Below are positions 30,001 through 33,000 of a stretch of DNA of 64,000 nt, one piece after another. Every line of letters starts with the position of its first letter. The stretch's first letter is position 1. Origin of the DNA: Candidatus Eiseniibacteriota bacterium (GTDB lineage: Bacteria; Arandabacterota; Arandabacteria; Arandabacterales; Arandabacteraceae); contig JBDRNT010000091.1 of NCBI GenBank assembly GCA_043810925.1, positions 18,800-82,799 of the forward strand, in the 5' to 3' direction. The position numbers are program-made.

Positions 30001-33000
30001 CGGCCGTGTTGCCCGCGCAAGCCGCACGGCATAATCAACCACATGTCTCGGCACCGGTACGCGCCGGACAAGCTGCTGGAGCGCGATTATCTCCCCGGCA
30101 TCAAGAACTTGCTCAAGATCAGGCACATAAGCACTGGTCGTAGTCTCGACTATTTCGATCTCTTCGTCACTACTCGGATAGTCGACATATATGTTGAACA
30201 TGAACCGGTCGAGTTGTGCCTCCGGAAGGGGATATGTGCCTTCAAGCTCTATCGGGTTCTGGGTCGCAAGCACGAAGAAGGGCAGATCGAGCTGATAGGT
30301 TTCCCCACCGGCTGTAACCTGGCGCTCCTGCATCGCCTGGAGAAGCGCTGCCTGGGTCTTCGGGGGTGTTCTGTTTATCTCGTCGGCGAGTACGATATTC
30401 GCGAACACCGGCCCCTTGACAAAACGAAACTGCCTCCTGCCTGTGGTCTTATCCTCCTCGATGATATCGGTCCCGGTAATGTCCGCAGGCATAAGGTCAG
30501 GTGTGAACTGAACCCTGCTGAACTTAAGATCGAGGATTCGTGCGATCGTGCTCACCAGGAGCGTCTTTGCAAGACCCGGCACACCGACAAGCAGGCAGTG
30601 TCCGTCCGATAAAAGTGCGATCAGCATCTCCTCGATCACGCGGTCCTGCCCCACGATCACTTTCTTGACCTGGCCCAAGATCTTCTCGCGGGCGAGATTA
30701 AGATTCTCAACCGCCTCGATGTCTTTTGTCTCTTCCCTCACGCGCTCTCCTCCGGGATTGCTTTCCACCACGGTCCCCTTTCTACTCCATTATGCCTGAC
30801 GTTTCATCTGTGCGGACATGTCAGCCATTACAGGGAAATCGGCTTAAATGGTATGACTTTACACTCTCAAACTAACAACGACTCAAGCCCCATGTCAAAC
30901 GGTATGACAGTTACAAGGAATTCGGTGACAGTTTAGTAATTACCAGGAATTCTCAAACTGTCACCGAATTATCCTGTGACGACAGCCGGACAGTTCCAGA
31001 CACCAGGAAGAGTGGTGCTGCCGTGACACCGATTGCCTGAGGGGGTTAACCTGTACCGCTCACTCGGAGCTGAAACCGGCTTTGATGTGGCTCCAGGTCG
31101 TGCTCTCTGCGGGAGGTATCCCGGCATTTTCCACGTTAATCTTATAGATATCGTAGTTGCCTGTACGGTTTGAGAAAAACGCGATCTGGCTGCCGTCCGG
31201 CGACCACGAAGGACCAAAATCCCAGTACAGGTCCGAAGTTATGCGAGTGGCCGCGCCGCCGGTGGCAGGAACCACCCAGATGTCTGATATTCCCGAGTGT
31301 ATCGATTCGAATGCGATATAGTTGCCACAAGGCGACCATGAGGGCATCTCATCGTTGGCCGGATCGTCGGTGACCTGAGTCGCAGGCCCGCCGGCCGCAG
31401 GCATCACCCAGATGTCCACATGACCGGCGTAATCAGCCCTGAATGCAATCTGGGTACCGTCGGGTGACCATACAGGATCGTTTTCATAGCCGGTGTGCGT
31501 AGTCAGCTGAGTTGCGGGCTCGCCTGTTACAGGGATCGACCAGAGATTAGCAGGGTGAAGGGGATCTTGACCGGGTGACCACAAGGCGTTGAATTCCCCG
31601 GTTCGATCGGCGGCAAAGACGAGCTTCGTACCATCCGGCGACCAGTCCGGCCGTTCGTCGTACCTCGGCCAGGTAGTGATTTGAGTAGCGCTTCCGCCTG
31701 TCGCGGGCATCACGAATAGATCACAGACAGGATACGCAGCAAGTCCGCTGTCAAGACTGCGATCGCTCTCGAAGGCGATCTGGCTGCCGTCCGGCGACCA
31801 TGAGGCTCTCGCGTCATAACTCGTATCGGCCGTGATCTGGCTGGCGGCCCCGCCAGAAGACGACATTGTGAACAAGTCCCAGTTCCCGGAGCGGTCCGAC
31901 TCGAAGACCAGTTGGCTGCCGTCGGGGGACCAGTCGGGATACCTGTCAGTTCCCGCGGAGTAGGTAAGCCGGACGGCACCGTCGTTCGCCAGCACCACGA
32001 CCTGAAAGACGGTGAGCAAACCGAGCAAAGCGATAATGACTATAAGGTAGCTTCGAGACAAGAACATGCTGCTTCCACCTCACCTATGGGTTATAGGCAT
32101 GACCGGCCACTAAGTCTCCGGCCCCTGCAGGAGAACACTCACGCGGGTGGAGCATATCACGGCGATCGACAAACGTCAAGATAATGTTTTCGCGTATGCC
32201 AGTGGGCCATTGCTTCATGCCAATGGTAATATTAGGCGGTATGGTACAGCGTTGTATGGACTATCAATCTTTGTACGAGCTCCGTGCCGGGCCGCAGGAC
32301 CGATAGTCGGTATTGGACCGGGCCTATCTCATAAGCCCGGAGTCAAACCAGCCGTCGACACCGGACCCAGTAGCTCACATGAAAGGAGGTCACCTCAGAA
32401 CAGAAGGTCATGTTTCCGGTACGTTGCTGCCCACCCGTCCGGAAGGCCGGAATCGAGTTTGCGTTGGGCTGCGAGTGGCCGACCCGCGGTTTCCATACAC
32501 GATGCGGCTCAGATTCCAATGCAGGCTGCCTTTGGGCTTGCCTAAAGCCCGGAATTGACTTATACTGCTTCAAGTCAGGGGGAGCCTCGGTCGATATATT
32601 AAACAATATGAACATCTTGGGAATTTCTGCATTCTATCACGACAGTGCCGCCTGCCTGGTCAGGGACGGCAAGATCATATGCGCCGCCCAGGAAGAGCGG
32701 TTCACCCGTAAGAAGCACGACTTCAACTTTCCCAGGAACGCGATTGATTACTGCCTGGACTATGCCGGGGTCAAGGGCAATGATCTCGACCTGGTGGCGT
32801 TCTATGACAAGCCATTCATGAAATTCGAGCGCATACTCGAGACGTACCTCGCCTTCGCCCCGCATGGGATGCCATCCTTTATCAAGGCAATACCACTGTG
32901 GATGAAGCAGAAACTCTGGATGAAGGACCTGATACGTAGTGAGCTCGGGTACAACGGGAAGATTGTGTTCCCGGAACACCATGAGTCGCATGCCGCATCG

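Follow-up and report, generated by a model that had tools for sequence, protein, structure and literature searches.

C-terminal sorting signals are a known kind of protein address. In the LPXTG/sortase, PEP-CTERM/exosortase, GlyGly-CTERM/rhombosortase, MYXO-CTERM/myxosortase and PGF-CTERM/archaeosortase systems, a short region is found on unrelated signal-peptide proteins of one genome; such signals are lineage-restricted, homologs of their carriers lack the region or bear another signal, and the region comprises a hydrophobic transmembrane segment and an Arg cluster. The C-terminal domain (CTD) of type IX secretion system (T9SS) substrates, either type A (TIGR04183/PF18962) or FlgD_ig-like (PF13860), is a folded beta-sandwich of 70-100 residues without a transmembrane segment, which is read in the periplasm after Sec export. 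T9SS occurs in the Fibrobacteres-Chlorobi-Bacteroidetes (FCB) group. Examples of in-plane amphipathic anchors are the helices at the C-terminus of E. coli PBP5/6 and the membrane-targeting sequences of MinD and FtsA. Here, we analyzed a 64,000-nucleotide stretch of contig JBDRNT010000091.1 of a Candidatus Eiseniibacteriota bacterium, referred to as the window, which encodes a TolB-like beta-propeller protein (the PD40 protein) ending in a short peptide tail. The same kind of tail terminates two Cys-rich proteins of the window, CysA and CysB, and we lean towards reading it as a tag of a new kind, which serves envelope sorting or anchoring after Sec export and is recognized by a soluble or outer-membrane partner. 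While C-terminal sorting signals as a general kind are known, the architecture of this tail appears to be new.

The ending common to three window genes

The three genes and the parts of the PD40 protein are as follows, with structural predictions from AlphaFold (AF2) and its predicted local distance difference test (pLDDT).

31060..32067 (-): PD40 gene, 335 amino acids (aa), exported TolB-like beta-propeller; 100% identical to NCBI hypothetical protein ABIJ00_08510 of a Candidatus Eisenbacteria metagenome-assembled genome (MAG)
31987..32067 (-): N-terminal signal peptide or signal anchor, residues 1-27 (MFLSRSYLIVIIALLGLLTVFQVVVLA, then ND), read from the sequence; AF2 helix at residues 2-20
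31135..31980 (-): six-bladed PD40 propeller body, residues ~30-311; Pfam PD40 x6, AF2 pLDDT mostly >90
31105..31134 (-): flexible linker VENAGIPPAE, residues 312-321; AF2 pLDDT <50 at residues 315-324
31063..31104 (-): tail STTWSHIKAGFSSE, residues 322-335, with core TTWSHIK at 31081-31101; AF2 short helix at residues 325-333
36166..37056 (+): CysA, 296-aa exported Cys-rich protein with canonical tail STTWGGVKSLYR, core at 37021-37041
37066..37905 (-): CysB, 279-aa exported Cys-rich jelly-roll protein with canonical tail PTTWSTIKALYR, core at 37081-37101

In the NCBI record, ABIJ00_08510 and ABIJ00_08540, which is 100% identical to CysB, lie on one 95.8 kb contig.

The PD40 protein ends in TTWSHIKAGFSSE (longer stretch before the stop, ENAGIPPAESTTWSHIKAGFSSE). 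According to the original prediction, this ending matches the TTW[SG]x[IV]K[AS] core of the Cys-rich paralogs on a protein that otherwise has no similarity to them, and both statements were borne out. BLASTP of the PD40 protein against CysB returned a single alignment, E[SP]TTWS[HT]IKA with 8/10 identical residues, and nothing outside the tail aligned. In the six-frame translation of the window, TW[SGA]x[IVL]K occurs exactly three times, at the ends of the PD40 protein, CysA and CysB and always 10-12 residues ahead of the stop. At the DNA level, the pattern for TTW[GSAT]x[IV]K has three matches in the window, while 0.00 are expected from 100 dinucleotide shuffles. The shared ending is not there by chance.

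The body of the PD40 protein belongs to the PD40/TolB-like beta-propeller superfamily. Pfam identifies six PD40 repeats (E=1.5e-59), and the AlphaFold model built with 36 relatives (pLDDT 85) is a six-bladed propeller with 3-4 strands in each of six blades, which Foldseek superimposes on E. coli TolB with E=2e-19, a root-mean-square deviation of 2.0 A over ~254 alignment columns and 24% identity. TolB is likewise a six-bladed PD40 propeller; however, it carries an N-terminal alpha/beta domain, whereas the propeller of the PD40 protein begins at about residue 30, and the latter reaches 197 bits against the TolB equivalog TIGR02800, where the cut-off is 343 bits. TolB is encoded in the tol-pal operon, whereas the neighbors of the PD40 gene are moxR/DUF58 and a carbamoyltransferase cluster. 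Because both the N-terminal domain and the tol-pal context of TolB are lacking, the protein is TolB-like and not TolB proper. PD40 orthologs have typical signal peptides at their N-termini.

CysA and CysB are distant paralogs (23% identical, E=1e-4). The CysB family has no match in Pfam or NCBIfam, and its 36 collected relatives, found in metagenomes only, nearly all end in TTW[GS]xIKA[LM]Y[RK]. The CysB AlphaFold model (pLDDT 81) is a jelly-roll beta-sandwich with weak resemblance to carbohydrate-binding, cleaved-adhesin and MAM-type folds.

The canonical tail is a module of ~17 residues, P-[TV]-P-[VT]-E-x-[ST]-T-W-G-x-I-K-[AS]-[LM]-Y-[RK]-COOH (peptide form PTPVESTTWGAIKALYR). The PD40 tail has its core and the upstream P-x-A-E-S-T-T, but not the [LM]-Y-[RK]-COOH end. 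The subfamily of the PD40 protein instead terminates in a conserved W-[SG]-x-I-K-[AS]-x-F-x-x-E-COOH, and the closest relatives of the protein, which were found via the propeller, all end in [ST]-T-W-[GS]-x-[IV]-K-[ASG]-x-[FY] plus 1-8 residues. When a hidden Markov model (HMM) of the tail was run on 853 open reading frame (ORF) segments of the window, the PD40 tail scored 14.3 bits (E=0.0013) and the next best other ORF 4.0 bits; the CysA and CysB tails scored 28-30 bits, both being among the 97 training sequences of the HMM. The idea that all three proteins bear the same tag thus stands for the core and fails for the terminus, which is F-x-x-E in the PD40 protein, and the PD40 copy is a distinct, conserved variant of the tag.

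Conservation of this variant was assessed in PD40 relatives collected by body similarity and not by their tails. In column entropy, K329 has 0 bits (invariant, 36/36), W325 0.31, I328 0.58 and F/Y332 0.71 bits, while linker positions 318-321 have 2.3-3.2 bits. The tail of the PD40 family is thus under purifying selection while the linker drifts. The tail is kept in PD40 orthologs at 50-60% identity.

Spread, position and carriers of the tail

Genomes, one per species, were scanned for TW[GSAT]xIK[ASGT][LMIF]YR followed by a stop codon, with chance matches estimated below ~25. At least 117 loci were found, distributed as follows.

Eisenbacteria: at least 29 loci
Latescibacterota: at least 9 loci
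Krumholzibacteriota: at least 5 loci
Gemmatimonadota: at least 4 loci
Zixibacteria: at least 1 locus
MAG labelled Gammaproteobacteria: at least 1 locus
Unclassified MAGs: at least 68 loci

No cultured organism is among the matches listed. In these sequence data, the tail is restricted to this group of lineages, in which it is present in multiple copies: three in the 64 kb of the window and at least seven in each of several MAGs.

The tail is strictly C-terminal. A relaxed motif found 149 copies in 769 kb of listed loci, of which 146 were directly followed by a stop, three had 1-2 extra residues and none was internal. The pattern TWGxIKALYR, which does not include a stop, matched 122 times in metagenome contigs; 111 matches stood directly before a stop, for which the chance expectation is ~5%, seven had one residue more and four had 3-8 more. 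A profile made solely from the two window families, searched against 1.84 billion cluster representatives, returned 136 at E<=1e-3, and 127 of the 131 proteins not already collected had the motif at most 17 residues from the end.

Synonymous codons of the tail vary freely, so that conservation acts on the peptide and not on the DNA; the proposal that the tail is a DNA-level repeat was rejected on this ground. W and K hardly vary, and R never takes the place of K. Upstream positions that were not forced by the search are also conserved, namely P at -8, [TVS] at -7, [PAS] at -6, [VTA] at -5, E at -4 and [ST] at -2. The PD40 protein fits this consensus with P-P-A-E-S-T-T, in which P-A-E of the linker corresponds to the unforced [PAS]-[VTA]-E.

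The tail is also modular. With tails removed, 138 carrier bodies among the listed matches fall into at least 73 BLAST clusters. The majority of carriers have no Pfam family, and the remainder include right-handed Beta_helix, LTD (lamin-tail), DUF11, CHRD, CBM20, MAM, Cleaved_Adhesin, PMP repeats, cupredoxin, SnoaL-like and PD40 proteins. Carriers are strongly associated with export: a signal-peptide-like N-terminus was called in 108/115 full-length carriers (94%) and in 286/1577 other ORFs (18%), although the call is a crude home-made heuristic and the control ORFs include some spurious ones. The original prediction read the shared ending as a targeting or processing signal instead of a sign of common ancestry, and it receives support from both the recurrence of the motif and its enrichment on exported proteins; targeting itself is what we infer from them.

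These findings also bear on whether the tail has a signaling role at all. It could be a chance likeness, a relic of ancestry, a translated DNA element such as a repeat or terminator, or a degradation tag, and the PD40 tail is indeed only a partial match at 14 bits. This explanation is largely refuted and we give it hardly any credence, given the absence of window matches in shuffled DNA, the free variation of synonymous sites, the unrelated carrier bodies and the retention of the tail in half-identical orthologs whose linkers drift. A constitutive degron on more than 70 conserved families is implausible. A nucleotide-level feature could be hinted at by the stop-codon bias described next, but there is no conserved read-through extension.

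In loci L001-L117 and L121-L240, TAG is the stop codon of genes with the tail at about twice the frequency seen in the other long ORFs there (61/104 vs 118/384, p=3e-7, and 52/82 vs 82/251, p=1e-6), and the bias is not explained by the last residue. In the window, CysA stops at TAG (37054-37056) and the PD40 gene and CysB at TGA. Read-through of the stop into a hidden transmembrane segment and Arg cluster was considered and rejected, as the in-frame sequence beyond the stop is random and TAG is followed by no longer extensions than TGA.

Some proteins carry more than one tail. Tandem arrays of 2-4 tails, ~19 residues apart, occur in P0157, P0192, P0193, P0195 and P0283, and SnoaL/DUF4440-like lipoproteins (P0239, P0260, P0269 and P0273) have a duplicated domain-plus-tail with one tail in mid-protein. 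Given these tandem and internal copies, the tail is an autonomous unit for which a free carboxylate is not strictly needed, even if nearly all tails are terminal. The idea that a PDZ-type domain recognizes the free carboxylate as the sole determinant is weakened by these copies, by the 1-8-residue extensions and by the F-x-x-E variant.

Carriers P0157, L072 and L082 are already lipoproteins, and lipoproteins with 1-4 tails (P0157 and relatives) would be natural tethers between membrane and wall. Braun's lipoprotein is joined to peptidoglycan by L,D-transpeptidases through its ...Y-R-K-COOH end. A loosely similar tether, covalent or tight, through the invariant Lys or the basic C-terminus could be envisaged for the tail, whose most conserved residue is this Lys (36/36 in the unbiased PD40 set) and which ends in Y-R or Y-K. 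Yet most tails end in Arg and not Lys, the last residue of the PD40 tail is Glu, and bodies of surface type (CBMs and adhesins, for instance) fit poorly, so that a peptidoglycan tether seems very improbable.

How the tail may be read

The AlphaFold models of the PD40 protein and CysB each have a short terminal helix (residues 325-333 and 271-278, respectively), which a stretch with pLDDT <50 separates from the folded body. W(i), I(i+3) and Y/F(i+7) form a stripe on this helix, and canonical tails have a helical hydrophobic moment of 0.50 vs 0.30±0.014 in shuffles, with the peak at 100-120 degrees (0.50-0.60). The Trp is followed by 9-13 residues, mean hydrophobicity is modest, and there is a lone terminal R/K (Glu in the PD40 protein). 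The models thus predict an amphipathic helix of 2-3 turns with an invariant Lys, placed on a disordered linker.

A helix of this kind may suffice as an anchor without a receptor, lying in plane on the periplasmic face of the inner membrane or on the inner leaflet of the outer membrane. This is the main competing explanation, and we consider it unlikely. The helices of PBP5/6, MinD and FtsA resemble the tail in their extreme C-terminal position, their length of 10-15 residues and their Trp/Leu/Ile and Lys/Arg content, and the hydrophobic moment of the tail is comparable to those of the FtsA and MinD sequences. The predicted helix, the affinity that tandem copies would add and the periplasmic-type bodies among carriers (cupredoxins and PD40 propellers) all agree with such an anchor. 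On the other hand, a 10-residue helix is short, a few carriers already have a lipid anchor, and many bodies are of surface or extracellular type (CBM20, PMP repeats, DUF11 and cleaved adhesin). MinD and FtsA act in the cytoplasm, unlike the exported tail carriers, and the known helices are conserved within one family and in character only, whereas in the tail the individual residues are conserved between unrelated families. An anchor of this kind needs amphipathicity alone, but W, K, I and Y are near-invariant over more than 70 families in several phyla. Moreover, the PD40 variant retains TTW[SG]xIK[AS]xF although its position +6 has turned polar and its moment is only 0.31. The near-invariant W and K, the absence of K-to-R replacement and the kept PD40 core argue, at the level of sequence, for specific recognition rather than bare amphipathicity.

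The tail alternates with known C-terminal signals. In PD40 homologs at most 50% identical to the window protein, a T9SS-type CTD stands in the place of the tail (P0080, P0084, P0093, P0104 and P0108), and a CTD-bearing protein aligns with two beta-helix proteins that carry the tail. NCBIfam assigned carrier bodies to choice-of-anchor J, DNRLRE, PEP-CTERM protein PepA, GlyGly-CTERM exonuclease ExeM and rhombosortase- and myxosortase-dependent M36 peptidases. The same kinds of bodies thus take alternative C-terminal addresses, which is one published hallmark of sorting signals. T9SS-CTD proteins are encoded in at least 27 of the related loci, and the window itself contains one:

48674..50263 (-): 529-aa exported protein with a FlgD_ig-type (T9SS-like) CTD; PF13860, E=1.9e-6, residues 460-512

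The FlgD_ig-type domain is the customary T9SS-type address of these phyla, and both types of C-terminal address therefore coexist in one genome. Published criteria for C-terminal sorting signals include a position at the C-terminus, several copies in a genome and signature residues that hardly vary (10.1101/2023.06.07.544157), and judged by its sequences the tail has most of the published properties. Of the tripartite CTERM signature, it shows the terminal position, multiple copies, invariant W and K, unrelated carriers with signal peptides and homologs with other signals; what is missing is the transmembrane segment followed by 2-5 basic residues. CTERM and sortase-type signals have this segment and the Arg cluster, whereas the whole tail module comprises ~17 residues, is predicted to be a soluble amphipathic helix and ends in a single R/K. 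Without these two elements, an intramembrane sortase-like enzyme cannot be its reader.

The T9SS CTD is closer to the tail in several respects, as it also lacks a transmembrane segment, occurs in the same superphylum, is carried by PD40 propellers and beta-helices and is read after Sec export in the periplasm, as we propose for the tail. The CTD is, however, a folded beta-sandwich, while the tail has 10-17 residues, and the two stand side by side in one genome with no sequence or profile similarity. TIGR04183, PF18962 and PF13860 did not match the PD40 protein, CysA or CysB (E<=0.1) or the tails alone (E<=10). The tail was thus rejected as a T9SS CTD, being a tenth of the size, and it was also rejected as the N-terminal boundary of such CTDs, since it is absent in 27 CTD proteins and in the CTD-bearing PD40 homologs. 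The tail could still be a minimal type IX signal, read by T9SS or the PorU/PorV attachment complex as a cut-down alternative to the full CTD. All named taxa belong to the FCB group, CTD proteins accompany the tail in the window and related loci, the same body families bear either one, and by eye both C-termini end in K-x-hydrophobic-hydrophobic-[RK]-COOH. Nevertheless, we find this improbable, because no CTD model matches the tail, the motif is absent at or within the examined CTDs, a folded beta-sandwich is not a single helix, and one machine gives no clear reason for two strictly distinct forms per genome.

The beta-signal of the beta-barrel assembly machinery (BAM), a terminal aromatic residue on beta-barrels, was rejected as well, as the tails end in R/K/E on soluble bodies. 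Models in Pfam (2025 copy) and NCBIfam 20.0 matched neither the tails within the full-length proteins (E<=0.1) nor the isolated tails (E<=10), and the PDB sequence set gave no match apart from one weak internal chance hit. The searchable literature yielded nothing relevant on the motif or on sorting signals of these phyla, although the tail may be described outside it.

Since the tail has most properties of a sorting signal, yet is not a CTERM signal, T9SS CTD or BAM signal, we favor a post-Sec address tag. The PD40 protein, exported by Sec, combines a TolB-like propeller and a disordered Pro/Ala/Glu linker with a divergent copy of an autonomous C-terminal peptide module. A dedicated receptor or processing factor, located in the periplasm or outer membrane, would then read the module and sort, retain or attach the carrier in the outer envelope, by a route parallel to that of the T9SS CTD proteins in the same genomes. 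A specific partner, a sorting or anchoring role and this destination are what we infer.

Several points weigh against this address tag. The organisms with the tail are uncultured, and no precedent mechanism transfers directly, as it lacks the sortase-type transmembrane helix and Arg cluster and is far shorter than the T9SS CTD. CTERM signals strictly co-occur with a cognate sorting enzyme, but all-vs-all clustering of neighboring ORFs in the listed loci found no candidate receptor, protease or transporter; the clusters consisted of T9SS-CTD proteins, Ser/Thr kinases, ABC ATPases, sigma-54 activators and spurious high-GC ORFs. The helix could, as mentioned, bind a membrane unaided, and 2-4 tandem tails suit an anchor working by avidity better than a signal cleaved once. 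Finally, the PD40 tail, with its 14 bits and Glu end, may have a partner different from that of canonical tails.

Gene neighborhood and significance

The PD40 gene is located 288 bp upstream of moxR, and its distance from the CysA-CysB pair is ~4.1 kb; both positions agree with the original prediction. The adjacency to moxR is absent in the orthologous loci L118-L120. Given this lack of conservation, and since MoxR is a cytoplasmic protein and the propeller an exported one, the adjacency is probably incidental, judging from these loci. For the same reasons, a functional link to the MoxR/DUF58 genes was rejected, and so was a MoxR-vWA-beta-propeller ternary system, that is, a conserved three-gene unit with a cytoplasmic propeller. 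The window MoxR belongs to the AAA_3 type (212 bits), and its cross-match to bpMoxR is weak.

On its other side, the PD40 gene adjoins a cluster of carbamoyltransferase, SxtJ, (DUF5989) and GDSL-lipase genes (32410-36068). The same carbamoyltransferase/SxtJ/GDSL-lipase cluster adjoins the PD40 ortholog P0044 on two contigs (L119, 14544-18040, and L120, 4918-8414), and in L118 the neighbors of the PD40 ortholog are a CysB-like gene and the gene for the V-type ATPase D subunit, an arrangement also seen in the window. Directly upstream of CysB and on the same strand, a gene at 38197-39456 (-) encodes a porin-like outer-membrane protein with a weak Porin_O_P match, which ends in ...QYVIGF, a classic barrel-insertion ending. 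The further gene sets of the window are:

26541-28975 (-); 20574-22718, 28845-30771 (-): DsrC-like/CCG and MoxR-DUF58/BatA gene sets, listed together
39662-48039 (-); 54976-62855 (-): V-type ATPase operon and origin-proximal set, listed together

The DsrC-like protein adjoins a CCG/4Fe-4S (DsrK/HdrD-like) protein and a membrane protein, and the MoxR(AAA_3)-DUF58 pair with a separate BatA/vWA gene resembles a Bat-type aerotolerance set. The D subunit of the V-type ATPase was confirmed by Pfam; the origin-proximal set, assigned by eye, comprises parB, parA, rsmG, mnmG, mnmE, jag and yidC.

C-terminal sorting signals have repeatedly opened the way to envelope machineries such as sortases, exosortases, rhombosortases and T9SS. 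The tail accounts for the common ending of three otherwise unrelated window genes. Its carriers are numerous and diverse exported proteins from several uncultured phyla that abound in soil and sediment, and it fits no known signal architecture, having neither a membrane-spanning segment nor a folded domain. Tentatively, and with somewhat less than even confidence, we propose that Eisenbacteria, Latescibacterota, Krumholzibacteriota and relatives possess an undescribed envelope-targeting pathway beside type IX secretion, with a dedicated receptor, transporter or attachment enzyme. Its signal would be a C-terminal helix of 10-17 residues without a transmembrane segment, with the core T-W-G-x-I-K-x-x-Y/F, on at least dozens of families and several carriers per genome, and covalent attachment may take place at its invariant Lys. 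The tail defines a substrate set usable for phylogenetic profiling toward this machinery and provides a label for annotating many "hypothetical" proteins. It may also be portable, as a very short tag for envelope display.

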